A DNA stretch of 55,882 nt, the filler included, from Sphacelaria rigidula (lineage: Eukaryota), in the NCBI GenBank assembly GCA_964200075.2. It is 4 parts of 4 records of this genome, joined end to end, with 100 filler letters (N's around TTAATTAATTAA, not from the genome) between each part and the next. Parts side by side here need not be neighbours in the genome. Positions count along the whole stretch, not along the records: positions 1 to 13,896 come from CAXNAA020002600.1; positions 13,997 to 27,892 come from CAXNAA020002601.1; positions 27,993 to 41,887 come from CAXNAA020002602.1; positions 41,988 to 55,882 come from CAXNAA020002603.1. One strand, given 5' to 3'. The position numbers were made by a program, and so were the translations under genes. Positions within the stretch are counted from its first letter, which is position 1. Every line of letters starts with the position of its first letter. Shown here piece by piece: positions 3,488 to 54,870 of the stretch. The notes under the pieces are model-generated. The model saw only the letters and a program-made list of their open reading frames with translations. It had not been told where the DNA came from and did not search any database.

Positions 3488-3532
<45 letters not shown>

Positions 3533-13717: not shown

Positions 13718-13828
13718 GTGAGTGCCATGACGCGTTCCACAATCTTATGTGCAGTCCTTGCGCGGTTCAATCCCCATCGGCAACACCTGTACAATGCAGT
13801 ACCCCCCTCTCCCCCCTCCCCCCCCCCC

Positions 13829-14050
13829 TACGGCGAAACAGGACGGGGATAAGATATGTAAAAGGTTTTTGTGTAATGTATGGAAGAAACGTAATGNNNN
13901 NNNNNNNNNNNNNNNNNNNNNNNNNNNNNNNNNNNNNNNNTTAATTAATTAANNNNNNNNNNNNNNNNNNNNNNNNNNNNNNNNNNNNNNNNNNNNGGTC
14001 CTCCGCCCCAAAAGGGGGGTGGGGTCAATGGGCAAACACAAAAAGCAAAC

Positions 14051-14081
<31 letters not shown>

Positions 14082-14212
14082 GTCCCCCCGAGGATGCGAG
14101 GTCAATGGTCTTACGACTATGGCATGCATGATCATGAGTACACCCCCCCCTCCCCCCGAGGACAATGATCTCATGACTGCGGCATGCAAAATCATGAATG
14201 CACCTCCCACGC
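13829..14212 (+). mobile_element. Stacked 3' ends of the poly(C)-tailed LINE (subfamily A across the gap, then two subfamily B ends)
   Basis: 13829-13896 encodes TAKQDGDKICKRFLCNVWKKRN and matches 36112-36178. After the gap, three successive ...GG(T/A)CAATG... ends each terminate in a C tract. A C tract at 13802-13828 precedes the stack. Confidence 0.75.
13897..13996. other. Artificial contig linker (44 N + TTAATTAATTAA + 44 N)
   Basis: The identical 100-bp spacer, with stops in all six frames, also occurs at 27893-27992 and 41888-41987. Confidence 0.95.
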
Positions 14213-14681
14213 CCCGTATCGCGGTGGGATAGTATAGCTTCGTACACCCGATCAACTCATACGTTCCCATGCCTTTCTCTCCTCTGCTAGCCTCCTTGCG
14301 TGTATCGCAGACCGTCCCACTTGCACAGGCGCGGCGTTTACAGCACCAACGTCAGATCCGATGCCTGCCGGGATAGCGATACAGCGCAGGAACGATGTGC
14401 GCCACCTCCATATGATCGACGTGTGTAAGATGCTCGGTATCGAGATACAAGACCCCTTGGGATCAAGGTCGACGTCATTGAGGTGTATCAAGAAGCAACG
14501 CCTTGCACAGAAAAAAAAAGACGCGATGACGAGAGAAACCCAACGACATGACCTTCGTCGCGTGCCTCCTGTTGTTTCCAAGGAAACAAGGTTGGAACAA
14601 TAACACCAGAGGAAATACAAACCATGAGTGCCTAGACGTCCGCCCTTTTCCCCCACGCCCCACCCCACCCGTAGACCCTCA

Positions 14682-16471: not shown

Positions 16472-18094
16472 ACAATTTTACAGCACCGACAAGTTGAGCG
16501 CAAACGGGACGCGGGTATTTGTGTACGGCTGCGCGGTAGTAGTTGATGGTAAGTAAGCAGGACTCAGGCAAAATAACTGTGTGTACCAAACTGACAGCTC
16601 TGTTCGCTGCAGGATCAGGCGATAGTTGAATGTTGCATGTTTTTCTTCGATATAGCAAATGGGGGAGAAATTGGGCGTTGACGTACCATACATGTGCCGC
16701 ACAAGTCTAATGTGCTCGGTTGTTTTAATCAATCGTAGATACTATGGACTAGTTTCCTGCCGCACAGTCACCAATCCGCGTTGAAGTCTGCCTTGGTCAC
16801 AAGACAGGTGCACCCAAGGTGAGCGCACGGACGAGCTTGCTGAATGACAATCGAGAGAAATGGCGGATAGAAAACGGGAAAAGTGCGAAGAAGGAAGAAA
16901 AAGCGTCGCCAGGCCAAGAATCAGTAACGGTCCCCAGAGGACCCCAACAGTCCCCTGCCTGGGCTTCAGGCAAGGAGGCCGTTCACAGTGCAAGGTCGTT
17001 GAAGTACGTCACGAGTCCGATACCTGGAGGTCATACTATTGGGGCAGGAGCTCCCAGTGACCACTTCTCCACAGGGGGGGGGGGGGGGGGTGCACACACA
17101 CTCATGCGGTTCATGCCTGCCGCACAATCACTCATGGGCGTGAGATACACTGATCTGGTACTTGTAGTCTTTCATCAGAACAGGCACGGCTGATAAGGAG
17201 GTGTGACTGTGCGCACTTCAGGTAGACGAAACTAAATTGAAAGTTGCTGTGCGTTGCGCTAGTACTGGTTATCGTATTGACATTCATCTCTCTCGAATTG
17301 AAACCGCAGCCTGAACACCAATGTCTTCATACACCACGAAAATCTGGACCTAGGGAACGAACACCAGCAACTACAATATACTCGCTGAGCAAGAATATCA
17401 GTGAACGAAGCAGATAGATGATGGATACTTCAGGGCTAGCTACCAATTCTGATTCTACGGTCCACGACAGTTTACCGAGTGGTGCTATTCAAATACCTAA
17501 ATACGTACAGTGTAAAATAGGTTGTAAGTACCCTCGTGGTTATAGTGTTTCGGAAACGTTTTTTTCTTGCCAGCGCAATGCTTGCCAGAGTATATATCAT
17601 GAAGTCGACACTTTCGACAACTTACACTTGGTCTCTCAGCATCTCGAGTGTCGCATGTGTTGTGTGGGAAATAAAAATAAAAACATCAAAACTGTCAACT
17701 TCATGAGGCATTCGCGAGGGAAAGTCATGACGACAAGGAAAACGAGTTTCTGAAACTTCCAAATAATATATATATATGTATATACAAGGTTCCCCTTCGG
17801 GTGGTTGGTACTAGCCTCCCAGGGGTGACGCAAGTCGAAAATATATCAGCGTTATTCCTTTTCTACGTTATAGAGGCATTTGTGTGGGAGAATATGCACC
17901 TTCCAGTAGATACTGTAAATTTCCACAGTTTCAATTGTCCCAGACCAAGAGTGGAGATCATCACAGGAAGAGGTGGGCACGTCCATAATGAAAAGCTCGC
18001 TTCACGGGCGGTGTGCGAAGGTGGAAAAAGCACCATCACGCACGAGACCCGTCACAGCACACATCGCAAGTGATTGCTACTGAACAAAAAGTGG

Positions 18095-18395
18095 CGTCGC
18101 GGTAGTACACGCGGCGAACTTGTGCAGGGTTCTCTACATGCCGGCCCCACCCCGCGCGCACGGATTTCGAATCACACTCGGTTAAAGAGATGTACGTAAA
18201 CAAGGATTGGTACTCGATTTTACTTGATTTCAGAATGAATGTACGTAAACAAGGATTGGTCCAAAATTGGCTCAAAGGCGTCAATTTGAGCTCTCGCAAC
18301 GCGCGTTTTACTTTAGAAACACTCTGCACCCCCCTTGCCCGAGGGTTCTCGATATGCCTTGGTCGGTGTTTGGGTTAGGGTTAGCGTTAGGGTTG
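18095..18395 (-). repeat. Dispersed element with telomere-like TTAGGG repeats, copy 2
   Basis: GGGTTAGGGTTAGCGTTAGGGTT at 18372-18394. The adjacent ~130 bp align with the reverse complement of 12640-12770. Confidence 0.65.
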
Positions 18396-18448
18396 GCGGC
18401 ATCTCCATAGTATCAACAATTGTTCACGTACATTTATTTAGGCCCCCT

Positions 18449-22528: not shown

Positions 22529-25500
22529 ATGCAGCACATAGCTGTCTCCAAGCTAGGAGATAGTGTTGATTTTCCTTTATGGAAAAGACGCTTCGAGGGC
22601 TTCCTTTTGTCTAACGATTGTGCGCAGGCTTTTACTACAGCTTTTGACATGCCCGTAAGTGAACCCGCAGTTAGTTCCCAGTTATTGGTTGGCCAAGGGG
22701 TCAGTGAGATAAGCATAAGACGATCGCGTATTGCCTGGATGTGTTTGACGCAGAGAACGACGGACCGTGAATTATTAAGCAGGATGTGTGATGAAAACTC
22801 CCCGAGTGCAGGCGGGCGTTTTTTATGTACTTGGTTTTTCCCGAAAACCCTGTCGAAAAAATCGAAGTGGAAACGCTTTCAACGAGTTACAGATGGAGAG
22901 TAAGGACGACCTGATGAAGTTTTTCGCGCGCGTGGATAAGATTGTTGGTATACTAGTGTCTCTAGGGCTACATATGCCTGTAGAGGATGGTAACCTCAAA
23001 ATATTTGAGGTACTCATAAGCAACTACGAGTACGAACAGCGTACAATTTTGTACAGAGACAACATCACCCGAGTAGAAATAGAGACTATTGTAAGACAGA
23101 GGTACACACTCATGTTCAGGAATGATACTAAGAGCCGTAACATGGGGCAAGCTCTCGTCACTAGCAAGCCCACCTGCCGAAATTGCAATCAAGATGGCGC
23201 TAAAGGTGGTAGGGGTGTTTCCAGTGGTATTGTAGCGGACAAGAATGATCAGAGTAGCAGTACGGAACACGTGGGCGAGAAGTACGACGACGTGCGAAAC
23301 AAGTGTCCTCGTTGCTTAGAGCCACGACATCAATGGTTCGACTGTACCGCACACGTCATCCCAGCCCCGAAGAAATCGCAGGATGGCTCTGGTGAAAGCA
23401 TAGCGTGTTAACCGATTGGTATGCAACATAGTAAAAAGGATACGGTGGGAGAGCGTAATAACAGTAATGATGGTATTGAGAGGTGGATAGCTGATGGTGG
23501 AGCAACATTCCATACGACAAAATCAGCTGCATTGCCCCGTGACGTGCAACCATCAGAGAACAGATTTAAGATCGGTAACACTACCCTCATCGACGTTAAG
23601 GGAGATCATTCATTGACTGTAATTTTCCCCAACAGGGCTGGAGGAGTAACAGTAAGGCTTGAGAAGGTCGCATACGTACCCGATTTAACTTTTACCCTTT
23701 CCTCATTAGTAGCTGCGCACACACGAAGAGTAGGCTTCTCGACTGATGACTCGGACATGAGTGTAACCCTACTGGATGGACGTATTAGGTTTTGGAGCGA
23801 TAGATCTGGATACTCAACGTATGGTAGAAGGATTGATTATGATGATGACTGCATCCCCTCTCCCTTATTGGTTCCCGAGTCTGTCGGAAATTCAGTGCAA
23901 CCCGACCCTCCTGTTCCCCTGGCGTTCCCTGTGATTGTCCCCGGTAGTGCCCACCCACGCGAGACCGCCGTAGACATGAACGCCTTCCACTGCATGCAGG
24001 GACATGCCAATAAATACTTATCGAGAGAGACAGCAAACTCGGTAGGTATAGAGTTACTGGGCAACTTAAAACAGTGTACAGGATGTTCTATGGCAAAGGG
24101 GTGCCGGAACTGAACGGCGTTGCCGAGAGAGCTCTGGTGATGACTAAAAATGCCGCACTTGCCACTCGCATCCAAGCCTCAATCCTCTTTCCACATGTCG
24201 AGCTGCCAGCATCGGAGACCCTCTGGGTTGAAGCGATATATTGAGCGTGTGACGCCCTGAACCACACCGCGACAACGTCCAACTTAGGTAGCAAGTCGCT
24301 GTGCGAGATGTGGCACGGCAAGAAAGCACCTGCATCACCACACCCGTTTCTTCGTGCGGGCTTTTGCCGCTGGAACCGACCGTCAAAGTCCTTCCTCAAG
24401 TGCGAAAGTAGCTTTTACCTCGGGCCCGGCATCGACCACCCCCGCGATGCATTACGGATATTGACGCGGGCAAATAAAGTAGTGGAGACAAGGGGCGTCA
24501 CCTGGGGGGCACCGCCTGTCATGGTGATGCCGCCGGTACAACTGCAGCAGCCGGCTTCGCCAAAGCTGGCAGGGGCGTCGGAGCTGGGAGGTTGGAGCTG
24601 GGAGAGACTCCAGAGCCGGGAGAGCCGGATGTTTTCGATTCTTCTCCACCGACTCCATTACAGCTACTGGGTGGAGGAATTCCCCATCAGCGTCAAGTTA
24701 ACTCTCGGCGAAGAATGCAGACCATGGTGATGAACGTGAGCGGGGTTCTCTCGGCGAGAAAAATCAGCCGCCCCCGACAACATGCTTTTCTGCCGACGGC
24801 GACCTCTCAGTGGAGGGGAGCGATTCGTCCTCATCGGACGAAAGTATTCCACTTCCAACGACAGCGCGGACTGCGTGCCAACGTGAGTGAAATCTACTTT
24901 GATCTGAAAATGGCGAAGAGATTCGGCGAACCAGAGCGCAGACGCGAGCGCTCAATCGAGAAGCGTTCGGGCTCGTGACCATGTTACGGCCCGACGGAGG
25001 GGGCAAAATAATCCATGGCCTGCTGACGGTACAGGAGGTTACCCGTGAGACGGGCGAGCTTCCTAAATGTCTCGTCAAGGGAGCAGGGCAGGAGTCGTTG
25101 TCGTATTCTGCGGCGTGTTCATCACCATACTCGGATTTGTAAATGGAGGCGATGAAGAATGAGTTCGATGGAGTCATGGCTGCCGGAACGTTTGCGGAGG
25201 TGACTAGCTCCGAGAGGAGTGCAACATTGTGGGTGCTGAGTGGGTATATAAGCGGAAGAATGTTTCACATGGTATAGTTGACCGGGCGAAAACCCATATG
25301 GTAGCTATGGGGTACCGTCAGGTGGAGGGACTAGACTCGTTTGAGACATTTGCCGTATATGGTGAAGCAGTGCGTGTCAACAAGGCCTTATACGGATTGA
25401 AGTAGAGTGATCGTGCGTGGCATCAATTATTGCCGTCAACCCTGGGGGAGTGTGGTTTCGAGCAATGCTTGGTAGATCCCTGTGTATTCAGATCGAGGGT

Positions 25501-27892: not shown

Positions 27893-27992
27893 NNNNNNNN
27901 NNNNNNNNNNNNNNNNNNNNNNNNNNNNNNNNNNNNTTAATTAATTAANNNNNNNNNNNNNNNNNNNNNNNNNNNNNNNNNNNNNNNNNNNN
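27893..27992. other. Artificial contig linker
   Basis: 44 N + TTAATTAATTAA + 44 N. Confidence 0.95.
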
Positions 27993-28045
27993 GGTCAATG
28001 GTCAAACGACTAAGGCAAGCAACACATGAGAACGCCCCCCCCCCC
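27993..28045 (+). mobile_element. Poly(C)-tailed LINE 3' end
   Basis: GGTCAATGGTCAAACGACTAAGGCAAGCAACACATGAGAACG followed by a C run, directly after the gap. Confidence 0.8.
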
Positions 28046-28415
28046 CTGTCGTAGCATCACTTCAATATTTGGCCTCCACTGTGAACCCCTACCGAACTGT
28101 AGCACGATTCATCTGTCTGGATTAGATCTCGCAACCCTTTGTCCTCACTGGCTAGAGTTGTACTGGCTAGACCAGCAGGGCGCGGCAACAATGCAGTGGT
28201 AAAACGAACGCAAAAAATGGATGCGCAATACGCTAAATGTTCGAATGCTTCGAATGATCGGCCTCTGCAGTATCACCGAAGTATAAATTTTCAGTGTTCT
28301 GCACGATCAGATCAGATACCATCTTCTACAGCCTATTGTCCTCTTTTCCGGAATAGCAGCATAGGAAGTATGTTCTTGAGACAGATTTTTCCCCGACCAA
28401 TAAGATCCACCTCAC

Positions 28416-31400
28416 CTGCGAAACAAAACCCAAGCGCCACCACAACAACACCCCCAATGAGACACACGAGCTTCCTCCGTTGTTTGAGGCGCTGTTGGAA
28501 CTGCCGCTCCCGCTGTTCCCTCGCGACCTGTCTTTCGTGTTGTCGCCTGACCTCTTCTCTTGCTCTCGCCCGAGCAAACGGATCCCGCGTGCTCTGCACA
28601 TCACGTGAAATGGCATTTCGAGCTATCTCTGAAAAGGTCGGCAAAGCAACCCGACCGCCTCCACCACCCCCGACAATGGCGGCGACAGCAGTACCACCGC
28701 CGCTGTGTTGCACCGATATGGTATTGCTGCTGCCGCTACTGCCGCCGTCGACGGTGGAGTAGGCTTCAGCAGCGACAGTAGGCATGGACGGGGAGGGATT
28801 GACGCAGGTGCTGTCGACGAGGCTTTCGACGGGTGAGGAGCAGGAAGGGCTTCCGGCCGCGGACCAGCAGGGAGAGGGGTTGTGCCCCGATTGTTTTACC
28901 GGAATGGGCGGATGGTGTCCTTGCAGCGGAGACGAGCGAGGACTGTGGCTACGACTTCGGCTTCGACTTCGCCTGCGGCGCGCAGACAAAAGTCAAACGG
29001 GTCACACTATGCCTTCTCAGCAAAAGTTGAATCATTGGGTAGAGGGGAAGCAACAATATGTACGGTATGAAACTGAAGAGGGCACACGTCCACATCAACT
29101 GCCATACTCAAGATATCCACGAGGAATACATTCTTCCCTCGCGTGCGACGCTACTATGAACACATGGTTGGTTTGGGCCACATACCGCATTGAAGCACAC
29201 GCAACGACACAGCTGTACAGGCGATGTCTCTTTTGCTTCACACGTAATTTCACGGAAGGGTTTTCGCCGTAGACGCTGTGAAGAGTAAGGGGGTATATTC
29301 AAGGCGACAATATTGTTGCTTGACTGCCGACAACCCGTAACGCAGAGCTAGGTTTTGTTTGCCTATTCGACGAATGCCATCAATTTAATCTCGTCCTATG
29401 CTCCCCTCTGTCATATACATAGACCAGGGACGATGTATGAACTACAGAAACGGACCTGGGAAGAATAACTCGTAAGTCTTTTCCCACTACTTACGCAATG
29501 GATGTGTGTCGAGCCTAGGATCGAAGCCCAGACGATACTGGCGTACCACTGCGATCGATTGCAACACTGGACCAGATCCGTCAAAGCTTGCTTGATGGTC
29601 TTGGTGGGGCAAGTTTCTTCATTGTTGCACTGTGCTAGGAGTGCATGAATGGCCGTCAAACCTGATCTTCCGCCAAAATACCACACGAAGATTAAAGTAG
29701 TTGCGTATTCGGGTGAAGAAAGCAGTCGTGGTTGGGCGACTATACCAATTGATGAGCGGCATGTTGATCCTCAGAGGTTTGTTTTTTTGCATGTGATTCG
29801 CCCGGAACATTCGTAACCATCCACGCACTGGATGTCAGTGGAACCAAGCAGCGTCGATGTTACTGTTGATATCGGTTGCACCGGCTGTTTACACCGACCG
29901 ACAAAAAAAGTGGTCCGTTATTCAGAAATAGCTAGGTATGAAGTTCAAGGTTTATTGTTTTAGGGTAATGAGCTCTTGGTACAAGAAATGGACCACATTG
30001 ATGTCATCATTAGATAAGATTTAGGTGAATCTAGGTAAAGCAGATACGAAATATGGTGCTACTACCTCGTCAGGTCAAGTAGACAACACTACAGAATCGG
30101 GTCGAGAGAAACTACAAGGGAACAGCTCACCCACCAAACGCGGCTTTGCTGGCACCCGTTCACTCCGAAAATTTTAACTTGAGGCTGTGGCCACGGGTAG
30201 CATGTGATGTAAACGATGCGCTCATGATTGCCATCGACTAGGAACTACCTTCTATGGCACGTCGATCTGCTCCAAGAAGTTCATGTTTTATAGACGGACC
30301 TAAGTCGGGAAAAAACGCGCCTGAAAATATCAAAGTTCACGCCGACATCAATGATGACATGGCCACAACTCTCATCGCTCTCGTATACACTTCAACAGCA
30401 TGGCTTTTTCTGGGAGCACACGTGAGGTTTTTGAGCGGTTCCTTACGCCAGAAGTCCAGGCATTTCTTTGGCACAAAGTTACTATTATAGGCGACTTGGG
30501 GTAGAACCCATGAGCCTGGGTATGCGTCAAGTGTCCGCAAGTCTTGAATTTAGAGCACGCGTTGACCCTATATTCTCGCTTCGCTCGTCCACTAATGTGC
30601 CAGACCATTTCCTCTCTCTGTTTCATCGCGCCGCGAGGTTCACCTAATGATGTACTTGCCATTGGCGGCTGAATCATGACGCGCGCTAGATGTACAGTAC
30701 CACGCGTTCCTCGATAAGAACTCAGCGAAAGTGCAAAACACAGTTGGTTAGCGCTGTTCTCCGACTAATGCCGAGATTTCCCCCCCACCGCAAAAAGTGC
30801 ACCGGAGACCGTCCGACAAACCGGCTGCGATCCCACAACCGGGCTCGTTTGCAGCAACTTTCGTCCACATGAAAGGCGTGTAGCAGTCCGAAATCAGCTA
30901 TAACGCCCAAATGAGTCGCGTCGTGTAGCAGACAGCTCTAACGGCATTCATGATCATCGCCTCCGTGCACTTTTTTGGCCGGTCCGGGGGGGGCGATCGC
31001 GGCAGAAGTTCTCCCCGGAACGGAGGAACAACCTTGTCAGACCTTCTGACGAATGGAGAAACATGCCAATAATGTAAACATCGACTTGATAAAACATTCT
31101 GACAGTTTGCCTGGATTCAAAACTATTGCTTCTTGAACGTAGGCCGCCGTAAGGAGTGTGATCATGTGGCATCAGGCCGCCAAATTATTTGGGCTCGCTG
31201 ATCCAAGCAAGAGTTGTAGACCACAAGAACAGAGCAAGAATGAACATGTCCCAAACAGGATGGTGTCGTCTACTGGTTCCGTTAAGTCGTTCGATCCCGT
31301 ATGTTTTCGCCACCTACTGCACCATAGCATTAGTAATAGCCTTACATCGACATCTATATGCGTACTGTATGCACTCGCGTTCGATATAGTCATCGACGGC

Positions 31401-31523
31401 AGGCACCCACGCGCCCCACTGAAACTCCACACACACTACGTTGACTAGAAACCACACTCATGTATCTCACCCACGTATAGAGCTTCCTCCATTTTTCAGC
31501 GGTGGCGCGAAAGCAGCACACAT
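28416..31523 (-). CDS. Hypothetical Ser/Arg-rich protein with coiled coil and C-proximal TM helix, spliced, 3' end unresolved
   Basis: complement join(31523..31471,28972..28416): MCAAFAPPLKNGGSSIRG|RSRSRSRSHSPRSSP...ARARAREEVRRQHERQVAREQRERQFQQRLKQRRKLVCLIGGVVVVALGFCFAG|. Donor GG|GTGAGA, acceptor CCGCAG|G (phase 2) and donor GCAG|GTGAGG. Exon 1 is less certain. Phase-compatible final exons exist at 27504-27491 (GFYE*) and near 27776-27631, both beyond an assembly gap. Confidence 0.5.
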
Positions 31524-31827
31524 CACCTTGGATGCGTACTGCAGAATTCACAAGGCGCAGAGACGCCGTACTGTCTAGTCGGTAGACACAGTAGCGCCGT
31601 CCATCGTTTTGTGTGTGATCACGATACGTGCGGCACAACCTACGCATACGCGGTGAAATTGGTTGCGGTTCGACGAGGCAGCGTTTGTTTTCGGCACAGG
31701 TACAGCAGTGCAGTACTGCAGTATCGTGTGGCAAGTGAGTAGCGATCTTTTCCAATCGAACTTCCTCACCCCCACTATATGTAGGAACCGAACTGTTCTT
31801 TCCAAGGACAGAAGTCAACCGCGAATC
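31524..31827. promoter_or_regulatory. Putative bidirectional promoter region
   Basis: Only ~300 bp separate the divergent start codons at 31523 (-) and 31828 (+). This depends on the minus-strand exon-1 call. Confidence 0.35.
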
Positions 31828-34800: not shown

Positions 34801-36600
34801 CAACAAGGGACCTCGTCCCTTGGTTAGGTGACATCCAATGTTGAAGTGTAAAGTTGAAACATTGAGCAATCTTGTTCAGTAGCAATGGTAGCAGTGACAT
34901 TAGCAATGGGCAACAATAGCAGCAAATGAAGTAAGACGGGAACTTACGAATGACTTATCCTCCAAGTTGATATATTTCTCAACGTCTTCTACCCCTTCCC
35001 CCCCTCCCCTCCCGCTTGTACCCCAGACTACAGGCGACATATACAGCGGCACATGGATCGGTAACAAGAAGAATGGGCAAGGCATGTACCAGTTCGGGGC
35101 AGACGACAGTATGATGCAAGGGACATGGGTTGATGGCACCATCAGCGAGGGAGACTGGGTATTTAAGGTGAAAATGATCATATTTGCAGCCACCGACCAC
35201 ACGCACCATCGAAGCTAACCCTCGGGTTGTAAAGAACGTTCTTCAGTCATAGCTTGTTCATGACGCCCACGCAAAGTTGTGCACTTATCTTATTTAGCAA
35301 AAACATACCCCCTTCAAAACATTAGGGGCGACTCTTCCCTCGGAAAATCAACTTGACACGAAAATTTATCCACGAACGAAGACCCGTTCGGATTCTCGCC
35401 AGAGTTACAACACAATAGTCTTGCTGGTGGGTGACAGTACAACACAATAGCTAGGGAACTACAGGTGTCCAAATTCTGACGGGTTAGTAAATACCTTCAG
35501 GTGTGCACGGTATATAGATTCAAACGAGTTGTGGACATGGAACACGACTGCATGACCTCCAGTGCTCCGTCTCGGAAAGGATGCGTGGTGAATGGTCAAA
35601 CTAAGGCAAGCAACAAATGAGTACGACCCCCACCCACCCCCTCCCCTTCCCCCTAGTAACTCATTCGGGGCTGTCATCCATATGCAAAACAATCAGCACG
35701 CTTCGAGTCGAACAATACTAGCAGGGTGTAGCTCACCCTTTATGCAATTGCATGCAGGATCATGAGTACACCCACCTCCCCTTCACTCAGGCCGCCCCTA
35801 CTTCCACCCAATCGTCTTCTACACTCACTCATATACTCCATGAAATAAGCACCGTATTGCCTCTCCAAAAACATACACGTGGTATGTGGGACGGTACGGT
35901 GTGCACCGGAAGATTCGAGGGCGGGCGTCCGCGTGACAAAGTAATAGAGAGCGGAACTTATGTAGCAGAAGAATGTGAACTATCGAAGGAGGAACGGGGC
36001 GTGGTGGAGGGGCACATGCGGGACGTGAACGGAGGGTGCCATGGAACCGTTTGATGCAGTAGACAGTAGCGGGAACACGATGACTATCCTAGGAGATAGA
36101 TGATGGGCATAGGCGGTGAAACAGGGCGGGATAAGATGTGCAAACGGTATTTGTGTAACGTATGGAAGAAACGTAATGAGCACTGAAATGTTGGAGGTGT
36201 CTCTATCAGGAGTAGGAACGGTTCTCCGTCTCGAAAGGGATGCGCGGTCAATGGTCAAACGACTTGGGCAAACAACAAATGAGAACCCCCCCTCCCCCTC
36301 CTCCACCTCCCCTTCACCTGGGCCGTGCCTACTTCCACCCAATCGCTTCCTGCACTCACCCATACATCCCATGAAATAAGCACCGTATTGCCCCCGCGAA
36401 AACATGCATGCGGTATGTAGGACGGTACGGTTTACACCGGAAGATTCCAGGGCGGCCGGCCGGCGGGGGAAGGCACGTTCTCCTTCCAGAGCGGCATCAC
36501 GCAAAGCGGGCGATACGAGGTGGTGAAAGCGGAAGAAGATGCTGATGAGGATGAGCCGCCTGCACTCGTCTGGCGTGGCGAGAGCGTCGTTGCCTGCTGA
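31828..36600 (+). CDS. MORN-repeat protein, radial spoke head RSPH1/RSP10-like, 225 aa, 5 exons
   Basis: join(31828..31893,33270..33422,34448..34585,35027..35167,36421..36600). All introns are GT-AG, phase 0. MORN repeats include FEGVFNGERIKEGVGKYTW, FEGDYVDGKKSGHGKMTFPNGD, YTGAWKNNLMEGEGTYVY, YSGTWIGNKKNGQGMYQF and YTGRFQGGRPAGEGTFSF. Both termini are acidic. The MORN call is secure; the orthology is inferred. Confidence 0.92.
33615..33800 (+). repeat. Dispersed repeat, copy 1 (copy 2 at 39243-39428)
   Basis: TTCAGGGG...TGGGTCAGGACAT.CCCGTTT...CATTCGGGATATCC...GGCGT.CTCTCA...TTTTGGATG is shared. Confidence 0.7.
35563..35655 (+). mobile_element. Poly(C)-tailed LINE 3' end (MORN intron 4)
   Basis: GCTCCGTCTCGGAAAGGATGCGTGGTGAATGGTCAAACTAAGGCAAGCAACAAATGAGTACG followed by a decayed C tract. 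Confidence 0.8.
35772..35931 (+). pseudogene. Dead duplicate of the MORN intron-4 end and exon-5 start
   Basis: Aligns with 36303-36462 at offset 531 at both ends. The acceptor TATGTAG is mutated to TATGTGG. It translates DGTVCTGRFEGGRP versus DGTVYTGRFQGGRP. Confidence 0.88.
35926..36302 (+). mobile_element. 5'-truncated poly(C)-tailed LINE (longest copy in the window)
   Basis: Decayed frameshifted ORF ...IESGTYVAEECELSKEERGVVE..MRDV..MEPFDAVDSSGNTMTILGDR*W..AVKQ../DKMCKRYLCNVWKKRNEH*NVGGVSIRSRNGSPSRKGCAVNGQTTWANNK*, then GAAC and a C tract. The 3' 60-180 bp are repeated ~10 times in the window. Confidence 0.75.
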
Positions 36601-39242
36601 CTCAGCCAATACAAAAAACAATCGCTGATTTTTTTTAATTCTATTTTCTTGGGACGGCACCCCAGTCAATGGTGCTAGCTCGTGCTGTTTCTCAAACGCT
36701 TGAACCATGCATATAGAAGATAACACAAATATATGCGATAGTGCGTTGTCGCCCGACTCGTGTAATATCGCCAGCTGCGTTCAAAGTATTATTCAATGGG
36801 TTGATCGCGTATGTATACTTGAAACCGATACAAAATTATACCGCAAAACCTTATCGCATGGCATGTGAGATGTTGCGTGGTAGCCTTCGAGTACCCTCAT
36901 TCATCTACACGGCCGTATTTTTACGTCTTGGATATTTGTCCGTGTATTCCTTCCTGCCTGTATATATTTACCTATATGCTGCTGTCGCGGTCACAGTCAC
37001 TGAAGTAATTACCGTTTCGCAGTTAGCAGTTAAGTTTTCCGCAGGACGTATGCAGTACAAAAGCAGCGTAGTCGATACTACACACAACAACGAGAAGGCG
37101 ACATAGATGAAGACGAGTGATCTGTCCGACGCAGCTGTCGGGTAAACGGACTCGCGTTTGGGAGGTGATTTCCTCGACTCCCTGCCAACCACTCAACTAC
37201 AACAGTAAAACCGCGACACCCGCAGAAAAGTAAGCGAAAATGTTGGAATTTATCGCCTGACACTCTGTGCATGTGAAGTTGCCTAAGTGGCGGTCTATTC
37301 GCAGCAAACCCCAAACAACAAGCGCGTGCGTGCTACGCGACGCTGGCGCTGCGTAGAAAGCTCCTTTAAAACCTGACAGAAGTCGTCAACCGACAAGACA
37401 CGAGTCAAACAACGCTAATGGTGTTTGAGCATGTTTGATCCAGATCGCGGTGTTCTCGTATGATCGCGTGACAAGACGCAGCGAAACAAATTTAATTCTT
37501 CAAAATATGTCCGCAAAATATCTGGAATCATCAAGACGCAGAAACCCAATCTCCATTGCTTTGCCTCTCGTGAATACACTGTTTTGTTTTCGAGAAGACG
37601 ATTTTCCCTCATTATCGTTCATCTTTCCAGATATCCGTACGAGTCGATGATCGTGTGAGAGTGTAAGGAAAATTCCGGAGGTGATGAACTTTCATCATGG
37701 TTCCCTCACATTAGGTGTATCCTTTCACATGCAGTGCTCCTCTCTCGTACACCGTACTCCTGAATCATTCCCACCAGTTTGGCGAACGCAGGCCTCGGGA
37801 GATACTTCGGAAAGACATCTGCGAGCTTGTTTCCGCCGTTCACGTAGTGTGGTGAAAATTGACCGTTTTAAAACGACTACATACTTGACTTTGAAGCCGC
37901 CCTGTCCATCTCAACGTAACCGTTGAATGGTCACCCATGGACCGCTAGGGTGGGTGTCATCGGCATCAATCTCGCATCCATTCTCGAGTGAAAATGATGC
38001 TGGATAAACAGATGACGCTCCGTCAAGGTCAAACGTTCAACAGCGAGGGTTAGCAGCAACAAGGGACGTTATTTATTATCCTCACTCTTTACGTCAAAAC
38101 ACAGAGACTACCCGTTGGAGAGTCGTCGGCCGTGTGAACTTTACGTGTCACCAAATGCTAGCATACTTTTCATATATACCCAGCCATGCGGACAACGATG
38201 GATCCGTTCGCTCCATGACTATATTCTAACCTCATCATCAACCGGGTAGAAAGCTCTTCGTATCTTGGAACACTGTTCTATCCAGAATATATTCCGTGGA
38301 AACTATTTTGTGCCTCGAGATACAGACGCGTCCAGAAAACTATGCATATCTAATCTGAAATCCCTGAAGGTCCGATCTCCATCACGTGATTTCTTCATGG
38401 CTGCCCAAACACCGTCCACACAGACTGTTTTCATCTTAGTATTTGGGCAGTGTTTGTTCAGCCAATTTCTACAGGCTACAGGTAAACAGTGGCCACTCAC
38501 GCACGGAACATCAAGGCGCTATCGCTACGCTAGAACCACGGACCTAAGGATATGCGAAAGAGTATCGATCTACGGGTCGTCGCAAGATCAAGAAGCCTGT
38601 AATAATACGTGAAATAACCATATCCTTTCGTGGGTATGCCGTACCCCCTCAACGCCTAATTATGGCATACGGTATTAGAACAACTGAAATCCGAAACAAT
38701 TTACAAAAACAAAAAAATGAATGACAAAATGAACAAAAATATGGCTGGATTTATCAGAAATCAGTCGACAATATAAAACAGCCCGTCGATCCATCAAACA
38801 ATCAATATTTGTTGCGCACGGTGCCGTGCAAAACCGGGTAAAACTACGAGGACTATTTATTATGCCTTTTAGTGCCTTTGTGTACGACACACTTGCGATG
38901 TGAGCCCTGTAGTCAACTTCGAATTCCTTTGAAATTGACAGCGCGCTGTGCCCCGAAAAAGGCTGTTTTGTTTTGTTCTTGCAAAGTGCGTACGTATGTG
39001 CTCTTCAAAATCAAATGAGCAGGGAGGCGTCCGTCAAACTACGATGGCAACAAATATATGGGAGTCATGCTACGGCAGGGGTTACACTTTTGGGCCCAGA
39101 TATTCTCCATCCAGAGTGGTTCTACAGTAGGGGGCGCGCAATTTTTCCAAGGTTCTGCATTTTCGGAGCCTCTTGATGGGTCTTCGTTTGCAGCCTCGGA
39201 AACGTTTTGGATCCAATAGTGCACTCCTACCGTAGAATCACT

Positions 39243-39428
39243 CTTCAGGGGTTCCTAAATTTAGGAGCACACAAGAGTATGGGTCAGGACATTCCCGTTT
39301 TGAAGGCTCATTCGGGATATCCTTAGCCCAGTAGAAAGATAACTGTGGCGTGCTCTCAATATGTCATAAGTCGGTTTTTGGATGCTGAAATAGGGGGCTC
39401 CAAGCAATTCAAACCCTAGTTGATATTT
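39243..39428 (+). repeat. Dispersed repeat, copy 2 (see 33615-33800)
   Basis: Direct similarity to 33615-33800. Confidence 0.7.
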
Positions 39429-39762
39429 GTTCATTCCTAAAAATATTTTCGTGAAATTGAGAGTCTAGGATACGGGTGAGAGTAAGAAGCGGTCATTTGA
39501 TAAATTTCGGTTCCAAAAATATCCTTCCGGGCCTTATACGAGGCCCGATACGCTTCACGTAGTGGCTTACCACTGAAGCTTTTGATATCCCCGGGTAGGA
39601 TATCGACGTGTTGCTGTATGCACACGACAGTGTTATATAGGCAAAGAAAAGCGCGCACATACAACGGGATAGAAAAATGTCGAGTTGGAGCGAACAATAA
39701 AACTGCCTCTCACTTAACGCCAGATATCATAATCTTACATAACCTTACGAAAACATTGTTGC

Positions 39763-40250
39763 CTGCCGTGGCGGGACCCCTACATATTCTGGAACGGCCA
39801 CCTTTAGACTACATTTTTCTATCGCGATAGTATCGCGACAATATCGAGATAGAAAAAAAAAAAATCTCTATCGCAATGATACCGCGATAGGGAAATTTGG
39901 CTCGGATAGCATCGCGATAGCATCGCGATAGAGAGAAATTGCATTTTTTTATCGCGATACTATATATCTGCCACAGGATCACACAGTTTCTTGCAACGAC
40001 CACTGGCGACATTAAACATTTTCACGAGGAAATATGTAGGACCAGACAATTTACCTTAACTTGATTTTCTCTGGTCGTAAACGATGCTATCGCAATGCCA
40101 ATCCTGGCCATTTCTGTCCATCGCGATAGAGAGCATCGCGGTAGGAAATTTTGTCTTTCTTTATATCGCGATACTATCGCGATACCACTTTTAGGGTCAA
40201 ATAGGCCTAAATAGACAGTTCCAGAATATGTGGTATACTGGCCGTGGCAG
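39763..40250. mobile_element. TIR element/MITE with TATCGCGATA subterminal motifs
   Basis: Imperfect terminal inverted repeats with a 14-bp perfect core, ACATATTCTGGAAC (39782-39795) and GTTCCAGAATATGT (40218-40231). About a dozen (T/C)ATCGCGATA-like palindromes cluster inside both ends. Confidence 0.7.
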
Positions 40251-40519
40251 CGCCACTCATGAATAAAGGTTAAATCGATCGATACGAAAAAACTGTACCC
40301 GGATAGACAACACTTTCAGGTTACCTGGCAATTCTGTTTTTGCTGTCTCAGACGGTAACTGCATAGAGCCTATGGTGTTATTTTATATTCGGTACTAGTA
40401 CCTGTAGTCATAGAAAAATACCGTAAAATGTAAGGCCTGACCCGTGCAGTGTTGCAAACTGATATTCGAGCAGCATCGTCCTACCTGCCGCGTGCTAACG
40501 CCTTGATCACGAGCCTTGA

Positions 40520-40556
<37 letters not shown>

Positions 40557-40961
40557 ACCCAAACACAAACACCAACCAAAAAAAAAAAAACAACGACAAC
40601 CGGTCAGCCTGATCNNNNNNNNNNATTTGCCCGCCCGGCTCCCCCCCCCCCCCCGCGCCCACCCCCCCACCACGCGCCCTTCTACCCCCCCCCCCCCCCC
40701 CCCCCCTACCCCGAAAAACAAAACAGCCCAAAACTGTCACGAGAAAAATGATCATGCGCCTGATGTTCGGCTTTGCAGGCTCCATGAAGCGCCTCATGTG
40801 GGCGAACTGGCGAAAACGAACCGAAGCGTGGGAATTCCCAGCTGCTCGTCGTGCTCGTTTTTTTTCATTCTGATTCACATGTAGATCTTCTTGCCCCCCC
40901 AAGCCAGCCAATTTTTCTGGGGGGGGGTCTATCGTAGAGAGAAAGTGTGATACAATATGTA

Positions 40962-41849: not shown

Positions 41850-41887
41850 GGGGGGGGGGGCGTACTCATTTGTTGCTTGCCTTAGTC
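41850..41887 (-). mobile_element. Poly(C)-tailed LINE 3' end
   Basis: G run + CGTACTCATTTGTTGCTTGCCTTAGTC running into the gap. Confidence 0.8.
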
Positions 41888-41987
41888 NNNNNNNNNNNNN
41901 NNNNNNNNNNNNNNNNNNNNNNNNNNNNNNNTTAATTAATTAANNNNNNNNNNNNNNNNNNNNNNNNNNNNNNNNNNNNNNNNNNNN
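41888..41987. other. Artificial contig linker
   Basis: 44 N + TTAATTAATTAA + 44 N. Confidence 0.95.
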
Positions 41988-48799: not shown

Positions 48800-51700
48800 G
48801 TGGAGATGATAGCGGATGGCTTTGCTTTCACGGAAGGAACGCAGTGGGTGCACGATGAAGAGGTGGGGCGCTTGATGCCGATTGTTTTGGTAGATTAGAG
48901 TAGAGACTGTATTATTTACATGCGCAAGCCTTCCTGTTGAACGTTGAATGCCTGAGTCATGACCACCATACGTGAATCTCGCACTGTTGTTTTTTCGGTC
49001 CTGTCCCCACTCAGATATATCGCATTGCACTGTCTGATTGCCCCTACGTCGTTGTTCGACCTGCCGCGTGGTGTGGTACGGTGCTCTGTTCGTGGAATGC
49101 CTTTCGGCTGATGCACGCACGTCAGTACCCGTGCGATATGTGCAAACATGGGGCGATGGGACAGTGGTTCGGCGGTTGTATATGAATCTAATATTGTTGT
49201 AAAACTTATATAAGGCCAACTTTATTGGGAGCCGTTCAGAGTTCCTGTTGAGACCTGCCTTTTGGGCCCTTCTCCGGTGATCTACGCCCGAAAAAAGGGC
49301 TAGGCGGATGTTGATGCCCTGAAATGACTTGCTCAAGTCGTTGAGACCGTTCCAGGGCAACTTTGCATTTCCCGCTGGCCGCAGTTTTGTTTTTGGCCAG
49401 ACACGCATTTTCAATAAAATAACGGTCAGGTGATCGAAACACTGTCATTTTCCCCCCTGTTTTTCATCACTTGACCGGTTTTTATTGAGCATGCGTGTTT
49501 GGCCAAAAATAAAACTGCGGCCAGCGGGAAATGCAGAGTTGCCCTGGAACGGTCTCAACGAGTAGAGCAAGTCATTCCAAGGCGTCGACATCCGCCTAGC
49601 CCTCTCTTCAGGCGTAAAACGACGAAGAAGGGCCCACAAGGCAGTTTTCAACGGGAATTTTGAACGGCTCCCATTTGAGTCGGTCTACGCAACAACGGCA
49701 GGTCCGGCTCTTGCTCCTACCCCCCCAGTGTCCGTTCTCAAGTCGAAATATTTCCAGTTAGGAACAGGTTTGCTGGACTTTTGTTCGTTTTTACTCTGAC
49801 CTGTCAATATTTTGATGAAGCGCGAGTTGTAGTGCTGTTCATGACATGTATTTTTCTTCCGTTTTTTTTTTATTATTGGTTCAGGCGGATAGAGTCTACC
49901 TCCTGTTTTCGGACATTCCCAACAACAGGATATGGAAGTGGGAGGTGAGTGGCGGATGTAGGCGCGGCGAACGAATCTTCCTAGGACCGATGCTCACTGA
50001 CAACACTTGAACCATCCCTTCGCGTTTTCTAGCTGCCTGCTAATCATAGCTCAACCCTGCCTTTGGTGAGCCAGAAAGTACAGCATCAGATCTCTCGAGT
50101 AGCATGGAGAAATATGTCACTCCACCATGCAGTGAGCATCACATGCACCTCAGATGGACGTACAGAGCACGGGGAAATGATTAGAGTACCGCATTACCGA
50201 CTCCACTTTGAAGATAAACAACCGGATACCTCTTGTATGTTGCGGGGTAGACACGAGAGCAGCACACGTCACCCAGAAGAAATTCTGCCTGATGCTCAAC
50301 AAGTTGATGAAGTCACAGCCACCTCACCCCGCCCCATGCGAGGTTACCCTCCTCGGGCATGCACACATACCTGAAGGCGCCCCTCGGCGTTTCACACCCT
50401 TGTTCCCCTAACCGCCGATTTTGTCATGATCCAACGTGGCGACTTCTTTCGGCCCACAATAACCATCGTGAGCGACTGTAGGAAGGGGGAGGGATTTTTA
50501 CGCTCGGGAAATCACTGTTCTTGGATCGCAGCGGATGCCGGGGAGGTGCGTACTGCGACAGCTCGCTCGAGCCAGGATCCAACGGCCTGATGTTGGTGAG
50601 AACAAACGGGTGCTTCGCAGGGCGGTAGATTTCAGTGGTGAACTAAAGCGGGACAGGTTGGATGATCATGAGTGGCGAAAACGACCCTGCTTCCTCAGCT
50701 TGAATCGCTCGAGAGATTCATCGTCAGCATCAATCTCTCGGATTCCCCAGTATTTTGTTAGTGCTGTTGTTTTGGTTTTTCGTCGTGGGCCTCCGTTTTG
50801 GTGGGCAAGAATCCCGCAGTACAATATTCCGTGAACAAACACCGGGGGGGGGGGGGGGGGGGGAAAAAAGGGCTTTACGACCCCTCGGCCAGCGGGGGGG
50901 CACCCTGTAAAAATTTTGGCGACNNNNNNNNNNTGGGTTATTAATGTTACTGTTTCGGGTAAACCTGATGTGACAAACCATGGCGGGGGGGGGGGTGTTT
51001 GTGGAATAACTGGCTTTACGACCGCTCGTACAGCTGGGGCGCACACTGTAAAAATCTTGGCGACTCCTGTGGTTGCAAAGATACACCAACACTAGTGTTG
51101 GTTCAGTACAGAGCGGCGGGCTATGTGCGCATGAGCACCGAAGCCTCAACTGAAATCGTGGCCGGGCATGGAAAGCCGTGGGATACTAAGGCCGACTGCA
51201 CAAATGCGACAACGTGGCACTTCCCACCTAATGTTATCTCCCGATATTTTCCATCTGATTTCTTCGTTTGCGTTTGCTCATGCGATGCCATGTGGTGTTG
51301 AGATGCCGGGATCTGGCGAGGTGGTGATTTGCGAGCACGGCAACCGCAGGATAACACGGATGGAGAAAAATGGAACTAGAACGCCACTGGCGACGCACTT
51401 TAATGTAAGTCGACGCTGCAGTGGACGACTGCACTCTGATACTATCGCCCGCTGTAGATTTTATGCGTAAAAAGCACGCACTTCAGTGCTGTAAATCCAC
51501 ACGATGGCAAATGGAAGCAAAATCGATTGTGTGTGGTCTACTTTTGTTCCAGCTGACCTTGTTCGCGCGACCCTTGAACACCAAGGGTAAACGAGCTTTG
51601 GGCATCTCCATGTTATCTGATGACAGCGCCCTCTGGCGCTCGATTAATGTAGCGCCTATCGCCTTCCGTTGATATGTACATTATTCCATGTGGATTTCTC

Positions 51701-54408
51701 CGAAAATACGCGCGGTGTCACCCATGCCGAAGCTGACGTAGTCAAGGAGCTGCTCTCGAGAAATGCCCGTTCTACTCCGATGAGGGTATTCACAGCCTAC
51801 AGCGCACTACATTTGGTCATGGAGTCACCAGAGTATGTACCCTTCGTGCGATTATCGAGCCCAACCGGAGGCATGTCAACCACGATTGTGCAGTCTAGGT
51901 GAATTATTGTGTATGCCAAGTCAATCGCGCTGAAGCTCGGCTGTGTTTTCAAAATATATTTCATAAGGGTACGAAGAAGGTGGGTTCGATACGCGCCGAA
52001 TGCTTATAGCTTTTTTTTCTTGGAAGTACAGGTATCTCATTTGCGCCGTTGAAAGCGTGAGGACGTACGTGAGGACGTACGTGAGGGCATGCGTGAGCAG
52101 CAACAAGTGTTCGATTCAGTTTGTTTGACCAGAGTTGACGCGACGCACGAGTGGTGATGGTCATGATCCAATCCTCGATAACAAAAAGCAAGGCGTGTAC
52201 CGGGAGAGAGATGAGTTCATCCCTTGGGACCATTAGACCATTAGACCCCGGGCTCGTCCCGAGGAAGCGGAGGGGTTGAAAGTGGAACGAAAAAAATCGC
52301 GGTCCAAAGGTATCCCCGCTTAATAATTCGTGTTCGAACCCCGAACGTGTCAGGAAATACGGTGCGTGTGTGTCTACTAAGCACTGTTTTGTGTACGTGT
52401 ATGCGATAATCTCGGCGGATGGACTGAACAGGGACGCCAGCTCAACAGTCCGAACGACCTGGCGTTTTCCAAGCAGGGGGATCTGTACTTCACAGATCCG
52501 CCTTATGGCATGCCCCAAAAGGAAAAGAACCCGGAATATGGCGGGAAGAGTGGCGTGTATCGCGTGAAAAAGGAGGCTCTGGATGCCGCGCGCGCAGATG
52601 CGGAGGCGGCGCCAGAGCCAGAGCTGGTGGAAGATGGTCCGTTTTCTTCCTATAAGATTTCGTGGGAGGCGGTTTGTGTTCTTGTGCTAAAGTGTTCGGG
52701 GGGTTGGTGCACTATATAGTAAGAGTTGTGGAAAAGTGATGTGTTGCTTCAGCAGAAGATTCAGTTGAAGGTGGTACACATCGCAATGAAGTTGTGAATA
52801 GCGGGTGCATTCGGTAGCAAGAACTGTGGAGAAGTACCATTTTCATGTCGTCAAAAGAGTTGTTGGGAAATCGATGCGTTTTGTGAAAAACGGAAGTGGT
52901 CGCGTTCTGTCTGTAAATATATATATATATGTGTGTATATGACATGACGAGATTGTGTTGACGCAGTTGTTGTCCAGCGAGTATGAATCGTGTGGGTGCT
53001 TCTACAGCATTGCTTTAATGCTGTTTATGTCGATCATGATGATTCTGCTATACCGCCGCAAGTTCTCGTGATATGGCCACCTTGCGAGTCATCATCAAAC
53101 ACTTCACCTCGTTGTTTGTTGGTTGGCGGTTTTTAGATTATTGACAACAGCAAATTAATTCGTGCCTCCACAGTAATCAGTGCTTCAAATAACGCATTGC
53201 TCTCCGCCCGGTCCTTCATCGGTCAGGGTTCACGTGGCCGAATGGACTGGCGTTCTCCGTAGATTTCTCGAAATTCTATCTGGCGGACGCTTCTCCGGAG
53301 AACCCCGCTTGGTACGTCTACGACGTTCCAGAAGACGGGGGGTTGTTCAACCGGAGGCTTTTCCTGGATGCGATTCCGATGAAGAAGGTAAACGGACGTA
53401 CGCAAGTTATTGACGCGATATGATGGGCTGGCTCTTGATGAGAATGCTGGGACACGAGAAGAGGGGAGAAAGGGGGTCGGGGGGGGGGGCGTACTCATTT
53501 GTTGTTTGCCTTAGTCGTTCGACGGGGTCGGGCGGGGGGGGGGGAGCAGCCAAAGCTCAAACAGCAGCGTTGTAAAGGCAAAACATGTGTGCCACACCCG
53601 GAAAACCCATGACCTATGGGTTGGGGTCGATGGATACTCAGCACAGGATGCACTTTACTGTATGTGGGTAACATGTACTCAACCCGAGTGGTGGTGATGG
53701 GAGGTTAGTGTTTCGGGACGTTTCACGTACTCGTGTTATTCACTTCAGTCCCCGCGTACGCTGGAAGCGATTCAGCAGAATTTTGTGGGTGTTACGATTG
53801 GCGTAGAAATTGTTGTTCCAAAGGAGGTCATGACTGAACTTCAGTTTTAACCTTTTTCAATTGCATTCTCACTGGCGTCTGTGGGATGCTGCACGGCCGG
53901 AATGTACCAGCCGGGAGCACCGGCCTCATTGGCTGACTGGTATCCAAATGCAACTACTCATGACGTGAACATTTGTGCGGAGGTCCGGGTGCTATCCCTG
54001 GAATTTTCTCAGCTTGAATGGGGGTACTAGCCTGTGAGAGTGACGCCGTTCAAGCGGGCCACCGACTGTTTTGTGTTGCTCAATTATATGCTTGTTTTCC
54101 CCTTGCTTTCGTTTTTTTAATCGCACTTGGTTTCTTTCTTCATTCCCTGTCGCTGTAATCAGGACGGTCGAGTCGGAGCACCTGACGGGTTGAAGGTAGA
54201 CGAGCGAGGGAACATTTTTGCAGCCGCTCCAGGAGGTGTCGCCATCGTTTCTCCCGAAGGGAAGCATCTCGGAACAATATTAACCGGTGGTGTTTTTACT
54301 GCAAACGTCGTGATCGCAGGCGACGGATATTTGTACATGGCGGCATCTGAATCCATCATGCGTGTCAAGATTCTTACGAAGGCAGCACCGTCACCCACAC
54401 TGACATGA
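48800..54408 (+). CDS. SMP-30/gluconolactonase/LRE family lactonase (six-bladed beta-propeller), 5'-incomplete, 316 aa recovered
   Basis: join(48800..48862,49885..49944,50482..50595,51303..51404,52432..52636,53227..53387,54163..54408); all junctions are in frame. Motifs: ADGFAFTEG, LLFSDIPNNRIWKW, EPGSNGL, CEHGNRRITR, LNSPNDL..GDLYFTDPPYG, PNGLAFS and PDGLKVDERGNIF, so the E/N/N/D metal ligands are present. Upstream exon(s) were not identified. Confidence 0.93.
49213..49686. mobile_element. Foldback MITE family A, second full copy (lactonase intron)
   Basis: Palindromic ~230-bp arms, AGGCCAACTTTATTGGGAGCCGTTCA ... TGAACGGCTCCCATTTGAGTCGGTCT. Homologous to 228-689. Confidence 0.88.
53490..53523 (-). 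mobile_element. 34-bp poly(C)-tailed LINE 3' end flanked by a duplicated G-tract target
   Basis: GGGGTCG-G(n) | CGTACTCATTTGTTGTTTGCCTTAGTCGTTCGAC | GGGGTCGGGCG(n). Confidence 0.85.
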
Positions 54409-54787
54409 CCGTTGAACCTGGGACTTGTGCGCTCGGCACAACGACTGCGGTGCGACAGACCTCCAGACGGGATGTGCACTTCGTTTATCCGAGGTTCCGT
54501 TCAGTCTTTCGCAGAAACACCCGCAACTGTGAGATTTTGGCTGCCATGGACGCTCTGATCTGGGTTGGGGGCAGCATATTTCTACAAGGAAAATGTTTTC
54601 GATGCGTGAGCTCGTAGTGATGCTGAACACGATGTACAGCTGTGTTAAAATACTGTGAACGATTTGAACGGACTGGACACTTCTCGTATCTTTTCAAAAA
54701 AATGCGTTTCCCCGCACCATTGGATTTTCCGCCCATTTTGCGGTATTTTCCTGTCTCATGCGGTTTTCTTCCTTAGATTTTGATGGC

Positions 54788-54870
54788 AGCGGGGTGTACT
54801 CATGATCTTGCATGCCGCAGTCATGAGACCATTGACCTCGCATCCCTACAAAGCCGGGATGGAGAACGCT
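54788..54870 (-). mobile_element. Poly(C)-LINE subfamily B 3' end
   Basis: Reverse complement reads GGGATGCGAGGTCAATGGTCTCATGACTGCGGCATGCAAGATCATGAGTACACCCC. Matches 14091-14150, 14158-14210 and 35750-35775. Confidence 0.75.

Follow-up and report, generated by a model that had tools for sequence, protein, structure and literature searches.

Why do some ten sites in one short stretch of a brown-algal genome end in the same sequence, followed each time by a run of cytosines? The stretch, called here the window, is a DNA of 55,882 nucleotides from Sphacelaria rigidula (GenBank assembly GCA_964200075.2), for which a preliminary description had proposed a high-copy non-LTR (long terminal repeat) retroelement ending in poly(C) and inserting into poly(C) tracts. 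The likely answer, in our view, is an autonomous C-tailed long interspersed element (LINE) which, together with a non-autonomous partner called here type B, integrates by target-primed reverse transcription at C/G runs. The window is made of four joined pieces of 13,895-13,896 bases each, with linkers (N44-TTAATTAATTAA-N44) at 13897-13996, 27893-27992 and 41888-41987, and neither a distance nor a neighbourhood that spans a join has biological meaning. Element copies occupy four of the six inner ends of the pieces (13896, 13997, 27993 and 41887), as would be expected if the source contigs break at a very abundant repeat, and the copies lying there (the first at 13831-13896) are artificially cut by the joins.

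All of the ten or so sites carried the common 3' terminus and its C run. The A-type terminus (GGCAAGCAACAAATGAGTACG, up to 3 mismatches) gave five matches, at 28014, 35605 and 36267 on the plus strand and at 41861 and 53490 on the minus strand, and the B-type terminus gave four, at 14122, 14182 and 35750 (plus) and 54795 (minus), with a chance expectation of 0 for either type (100 shuffles each). The tenth site (14021-14052) is a variant tail, ...GGTCAATGGGCAAACACAAAAAGCAAACAA, which lacks the ATGAGTAC motif and is followed by C29. In 9/9 pattern matches the terminus leads into C, either as a run or as a decayed C-rich tract, the range being C4 to C12. Type B shares only its last ~55 nt with type A. 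The copies with this same 3' end measure 32, 47, 53, 66, 113 and 359 nt, in addition to three copies cut at the joins; the fixed 3' end of the preliminary description thus stands, and so does its variable 5' truncation in the window, but not as the sole pattern, since many contigs of the organism begin at one fixed point 67 nt from the end. The decayed open reading frame (ORF) with a stop just before the tail was also recovered, the frame ending ...KGCAVNGQTTWANNK or ...KGCVVNGQTKASNK with its TGA 5 nt before the C run.

Judged from their sequence, the repeats are copies, shortened from the 5' side, of an autonomous non-LTR retrotransposon that has a predicted apurinic-type endonuclease and a predicted reverse transcriptase (RT). 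The window itself is without an RT or endonuclease part, its longest copy of 359 nt corresponding to residues 1244-1360 of a 1360-aa relative. The 59-residue tail peptide (one in-frame stop read as X) matched 29 proteins of 31 candidates, and the 218-aa relative P0007, used as query, led to P0031 (1360 aa; RVT_1, Exo_endo_phos and Exo_endo_phos_2) and P0033 (1328 aa), both terminating ...NGQMTKASNK; RVT_1 was precomputed on P0030-P0034. A 22-nt terminus pattern that included no C run served to find DNA copies from outside; it matched 4 loci, three of them on metagenome contigs and the fourth on a contig of a bacterial bin, and had 0 matches in viral contigs. Two of these loci have intact frames, of 1426 codons in L002 (protein P0036) and of 1382 codons in L004, the latter being the single copy in the bacterial bin. 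In P0036, Exo_endo_phos (residues 235-461, E 6.7e-13) lies N-terminal of RVT_1 (residues 807-1056, E 1.1e-30), and the closest solved structure to the element protein is L1 ORF2p (E 3e-22). No second sense-strand frame of at least 120 codons was present among those listed on L002, so a single ORF and no separate ORF1 is seen; the predicted architecture is one long ORF with an N-terminal extension, the apurinic-type endonuclease, the RT and a C-terminal Cys/His-rich region. The younger copies of the window have 95.5-100% identity with L002, and the old 359-nt copy has 81.5%. Intact RT-encoding relatives therefore exist, as the L002 and L004 frames and the two domains on the L002 frame attest, and the similar peptides among brown-algal predicted proteins that the preliminary description had mentioned could be named as protein relatives from Sphacelaria rigidula and Ectocarpus sp., among them the 60%-identical P0034, annotated in Ectocarpus sp. 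and ending ...NGQMTTASNK.

Some other features of these relatives were noted. The N-terminal extension ahead of the endonuclease (L002 3695-4222, minus strand; about residues 60-235 of P0036) has no Pfam match and looks by eye like an RNA-recognition motif (VLLVFGV...EFKRKC...FRVTL); if this reading is true, an ORF1-like RNA-binding part would be fused into the single ORF. Upstream of the ORF in L004 (5000-5259, reverse strand) two to three tandem repeats of ~80 bp (...GACATAGACAT.AA.TACT.AACTAACCAGTTTTTTTT...) may be promoter monomers. The brown-algal gene models P0017, P0012, P0024 and P0034 fuse the tail peptide to host or other transposable element sequence, P0017 joining it to a class 3 lipase, and these are chimeric predictions caused by the element.

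Is the C run the true end of the element or an internal stretch? At 4/4 outside loci the terminus is followed by C8, C10, C13 or CCTCCCCCCCTCC and then by unrelated flanks, and in predicted proteins of other assemblies the read-through tail shows PPP within 10 residues in 16/18 cases, the exceptions being P0001 (a short C4) and P0022 (which ends after PP). The organism's own data, Logan contigs from four sequencing runs of 2 studies (X1, X3, X4 and X5) compared over 27993-40614, gave 447, 215, 494 and 64 loose contig ends behind 28046, with a consensus of 12-19 more C and then no agreement (0.36-0.43), many copies in these runs having tails longer than 24-31 C. The C run is therefore the true 3' end, because the flanks diverge beyond it in the outside loci and in the own-organism contigs alike. 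Upstream of 36187, 134, 111, 140 and 41 contigs (X1, X3, X4 and X5) extend, with a consensus that by eye resembles the element's upstream sequence. The single-copy bin depth is about 27, 14, 28 and 3 across the four runs, as compared with summed word depths in X1 of 405,241 (27993-28413), 196,728 and 845,032 for bins with copies; summed contig depth is not a copy number and is taken as evidence of very high multiplicity only, which agrees with the high copy number first proposed.

The large class of own-organism contigs with a common start, 67 nt before the 3' end, has its boundary at 36224, three nt past the first base of the unit (GTG|CTCC). The same boundary recurs in the loose ends and in 13 listed joint rows, and the 66-nt copy of the window at 35560 begins there. 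The 67 nt from GTGCTCC to GAGTACG are predicted to form a closed three-way RNA fold, in which the first six bases pair with the last six bases of the element before the final G; its free energy is -19 to -19.9 kcal/mol, and the two intact copies reach z of -2.4 and -2.7, the other copies giving weaker values. One compensating pair change (GUUCUC/GAGAAC in the 36.2-kb copy versus GUGCUC/GAGUAC) was found in the closing stem, and type B gives this stem no support. The module is likely, on these predictions, to be an RT-recognition element overlapping the last 21 codons. A known ribozyme was considered as the cause of the fixed boundary and dropped, no Rfam family having reached threshold: there was no match at gathering score in the window, and in L002 and L004 (E up to 1) one unrelated weak hit elsewhere. 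The sole tRNA gene of the window (25267-25359) lies outside the B-type and 67-nt copies.

Where do the copies insert? A C run lies directly upstream of 5/8 readable 5' junctions, at 13831 (a 29-nt C-rich tract), 14090, 14158, 35658 and 53521. At a sixth, 35929, the flanks 35772-35931 and 36303-36462 match at 84% over 160 bp. The upstream repeat begins with CCACCTCCCC exactly after the terminus of the preceding B copy and stops inside a MORN-like exon that resumes only past the downstream repeat, and the elements preceding the two repeats belong to different subfamilies; since the repeat starts at the B terminus, the exon is broken and the upstream subfamilies differ, the simplest reading is that the C-rich tail of the B copy received the first nick and that a long target-site duplication resulted. 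The flanks of the 53490-53521 fragment, C7GC3GACCCC and C11GACCCC, are equal at 16/17 positions. Candidate target-site duplications are thus of 7 bp, 17 bp (16/17) and ~160 bp (84%), all C-rich at their start and a small sample. A further candidate, for L002 (CCTTATCA), was discarded, as the homology with L004 extends further upstream. In X1, X3 and X4, respectively, 346, 272 and 331 contigs have at least 26 C just before the unit start, and among the 15 joint rows listed, 14 connect the tail of a copy with the start of a unit (36224 in 13 rows, 36229 in one), and the remaining row goes back from 36263 to 35603. The junctions and the contig joints fit insertion into C runs, especially into the tails of earlier copies.

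Several points weigh against this reading. There are only three duplications, in low-complexity C-rich sequence where chance similarity is easier; no C run precedes the complete unit at 35560, and where the 54.8-kb B copy begins is uncertain. The intact copies were found on outside contigs and not in the window's own assembly, and their 5' ends and duplications were not captured. The insertions at 35560-36179 are also present in a divergent strain (X4 record 20). The 15 joint rows listed hold no empty (pre-insertion) site, which says nothing either way. Upstream C runs can also be the tails of earlier units laid down in one template-jumping event, for which no target preference is needed. Of the priming at G/C homopolymers proposed in the preliminary description, the local junctions and the loose contig ends fit, while eight junctions, three low-complexity duplications and the lack of an empty site leave the targeting of existing C runs supported but not proven.

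The C run might instead be made afresh at each insertion, with the RT extending the nicked target, or the cDNA when it jumps between templates, by G that no template specifies, without preference for C/G targets, and with arrays formed in a single event by jumps from the 5' end of one short template to the 3' end of another. The wide variation of the tails (C4 to C42), the many run contigs with more than 24-31 C as against only 8-13 in the intact outside copies, and the missing upstream run at the full unit 35560 agree with this, and template jumping on a short RNA is expected to leave one unit after another with the start at a fixed point. The intact copies, however, have the C run in their DNA, so that transcripts can template it; furthermore, the 53.5-kb fragment has C7-11...GACCCC on both sides and the 160-bp duplication of the 35929 copy begins at the pre-existing C-rich tail of another subfamily, and therefore at these two loci the C tract was already in the target. 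We consider an origin by untemplated addition unlikely.

It is still less probable, in our estimate, that the arrays spread mainly as a minisatellite does, through unequal crossing-over or replication slippage, with retrotransposition in a founding role only. The head-to-tail arrays at 13997-14217, 3455-3695 and 50844-51064 have the look of one, and the adjacent units 14090 and 14158 both begin GAGGA after TCCCCCC, but neighbours often differ in subfamily (at 14.0 kb the order is variant, B, B, and at 35.6 kb it is A, B, A), the flanks after the tail differ in hundreds of contigs, and solitary fragments with flanking duplications exist. That faulty sequencing or assembly produced the C/G runs, for instance as the poly-G of two-colour chemistry, is hardly credible: all three N10 gaps are flanked by long C/G runs and the Logan contigs break near the repeats, as an artefact would have it, yet C runs are found within contigs with unique sequence on both sides, were seen again in 4 runs from 2 studies as well as in 4 independent outside assemblies, and always come after the same terminus, on the element's own strand.

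The favoured reading, a C-tailed autonomous LINE and its type B partner, would work as follows. A templated (C)n tail instead of poly(A) would end the element, and the RNA signal of the RT would lie within the last ~67 nt, because the 3' untranslated region (UTR) is only 5 nt, these nucleotides also encoding the conserved C-terminal peptide. Integration would proceed by target-primed reverse transcription: the endonuclease would nick the strand of a G run, and the G-rich 3' end would anneal to the C tail of the RNA and prime cDNA synthesis. Priming of this kind would make existing C runs, and above all the tails of earlier copies, the preferred targets, with head-to-tail arrays and C runs flanking the copies as the outcome, and with C tracts lengthening probably by slippage and nesting. 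More tentatively, and with somewhat less than an even chance, we propose a brown-algal LINE/SINE (short interspersed element) system with G:C primer-template pairing and a C/G-homopolymer endonuclease, whose main product would be the processed 67-nt 3' module with its tail, copying itself into its own tails and seeding C/G tracts prone to G-quadruplex and i-motif formation, and whose machinery unrelated short repeats would also use.

Table 1. Element copies, their flanks and other short C-tailed units in the window.
Position	Strand	Feature	Remark
3455..3695	+	Two related short units (3455-3532, 3621-3695) separated by an N10 gap, with long C runs after them (C42 and C26)	Possibly another C-tailed family
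13802..13830	+	C-rich 5' flank (CCCCCCTCTCCCCCCTCCCCCCCCCCCTAC) immediately upstream of a copy	
13831..13896	+	A-type copy of which the join leaves only the 5' part	95.5% identical to L002; encodes TAKQDGDKICKRFLCNVWKKRN
13997..14081	+	Variant tail (5' side cut by join), then C29	
14090..14157	+	B-type fragment of 53 nt and C8TC6	TCCCCCC on both sides, possible 7-bp target-site duplication
14158..14217	+	B-like fragment of 47 nt and decayed C tract	Third in head-to-tail array
27993..28046	+	A-type 3' end (5' side cut by join) and C12	
35560..35657	+	Complete 66-nt A-type 3' unit (starts GTGCTCC) and decayed 32-nt C-rich tail	
35658..35771	+	B-type non-autonomous copy	Directly in the preceding unit's tail; internal deletion relative to the 54.8-kb copy
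35772..35931	+	Upstream copy of the ~160-bp putative target-site duplication	Starts right after the B tail, ends inside MORN-like exon
35929..36302	+	Longest A-type copy, 359 nt, and 15-nt C-rich tail	Decayed, in-frame stops
36303..36462	+	Downstream copy of the ~160-bp putative duplication	84% identical to 35772-35931; exon resumes after it
40493..40706	+	Short unit (40493-40556), then C34; C14 and C22 runs around an N10 gap	Unit by eye like those at 3455
41850..41887	-	A-type 3' end (cut by join) and C11	100% identical to L002 and L004
50844..51064	-	Distinct ~80-nt unit present twice (50864-50923, 50996-51064) around an N10 gap, with C20 after one copy and C11 after the other	81% alike
53472..53544	-	A-type fragment of 32 nt (53490-53521) between C-rich flanks	Flanks match at 16/17 positions
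54791..55014	-	Longest B-type copy (at least 220 nt) and C4	Last ~55 nt common with A type

The window holds 17 C/G runs of at least 10, versus about 0.07 expected, and 8 such A/T runs. A repeat unit adjoins 11/17 of the C/G runs, namely as four element tails, two upstream flanks of the element and five other short units. Of the arrays of such other units, those at 3455-3695 and 50844-51064 were confirmed as repeats by repeat comparison, and the C tail may be shared by several families. All three N10 gaps (3611-3620, 40615-40624 and 50924-50933) lie between long C or G runs in arrays of short units, and long C/G tracts evidently break the assembly. A C17 run on the minus strand (17074-17090) comes after ...GCATGAACCGCATGAGTGTGTGTGCA, which by eye is like a decayed B-type tail.

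The surroundings of the copies contain further features. MORN-repeat-like exons (YSGTWIGNKKNGQGMYQF..., DGTVYTGRFQGGRP...) are present at 35000-35180 and 35880-36500, and the element copies of this region sit in an intron of the MORN-like gene, where one insertion duplicated the start of an exon. In the third piece, other repeats of very high depth occur at 30519-31360, 31782-32202, 33466-33886 and 39360-39780 (~9,500 to 222,000 summed depth versus ~27 single-copy in X1), and many contigs terminate on both sides of 30930-30933. A Pfam search of the ten longest of the 41 ORFs in the window gave as its sole match a Copia-type Pol_BBD fragment, in the ORF 23412-24110 on the plus strand (E 1.1e-08), taken as a fragment of an LTR retrotransposon polyprotein. 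The tRNA gene mentioned above is a predicted tRNA-Tyr (GTA) on the plus strand, 93 nt in length and long enough for an intron.

What would such an element mean? Homopolymer-tailed LINEs are understood almost wholly through poly(A) and T-rich nick sites. A C/G counterpart, if true, would show how far tail-target pairing, and not polyadenylation, drives target-primed reverse transcription, and an RT-recognition module of only ~67 nt overlapping coding sequence would be a minimal template. C-tailed elements would also explain the excess of long C/G runs in this genome (the 17 runs in 55 kb); within introns, such runs could also form G-quadruplexes and act as slippage or fragile sites. In the annotation of brown-algal genomes, contigs that break and gene models that are chimeric are to be expected wherever these elements lie.

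How does the element compare with known systems? The mammalian L1 has an apurinic-type endonuclease and an RT, and its homopolymer tail is complementary to the nick primer; its copies are 5' truncated, are flanked by target-site duplications and insert into the tails of earlier copies, and it mobilises non-autonomous partners. The present element is alike in its endonuclease and RT, its 5' truncation, its nesting in tails and its non-autonomous partner, and would be alike in tail-primer complementarity and, if the candidates are true, in target-site duplications. It differs in its tail, which is (C)n in 9/9 window copies and 4/4 outside copies and not poly(A); since polyadenylation cannot yield a tail of C, either a template or the RT itself must supply it. 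In contrast to L1, moreover, its 3' UTR is only 5 nt and no separate ORF1 is seen, and its partner shares a specific 3' sequence, pointing to stringent recognition, whereas L1 partners share the tail only.

Stringent LINE/SINE pairs (eel UnaL2/UnaSINE1, CR1, RTE/BovB, I factor) have a conserved structured 3' end common to the LINE and its partner, and, in place of poly(A), a short-repeat tail that presumably pairs with the target and lengthens as the RT slips, the 3' UTRs of RTE-type elements being very short. Unlike theirs, the tail here is a C homopolymer reaching 30-40 nt, and the recognition module would overlap coding sequence. The R1-clade microsatellite LINEs of insects (Waldo, Mino, Kibi, Koshi and Dong) have tails that equal the target repeat and copies that nest in the repeat or in each other, with di- to tetranucleotide repeats as targets, whereas the present algal element would target a (C)n/(G)n homopolymer, with a specificity loose enough for dispersed intron insertions. 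The literature on poly-C-tailed LINEs yielded nothing relevant, a weak blank given that the spelling 'poly(C)' is not searchable, and there is a real chance that curators already know the C terminal motif. A feature search, which gave only generic endonuclease/RT clusters, and a gastropod paper naming RTEX yielded no diagnostic clade features.

The nearest counterpart is found in Ectocarpus. In the main-text passages of a census of its transposable elements, RTE-X is the most abundant LINE group, with a non-autonomous partner, RTEX-N1_Ec32, that shares only the 3' end, and frequent 5' truncation and very short non-autonomous families are reported (PMC12477816). A C tail or C-run targets are unmentioned in these main-text passages, and in this respect the present element is unlike RTE-X as described there (PMC12477816). 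It is alike in its brown-algal host and in a partner sharing the 3' end, and the single ORF fits too, though it is not exclusive to RTE-X. By this analogy, the element is probably the brown-algal family catalogued as RTE-X.

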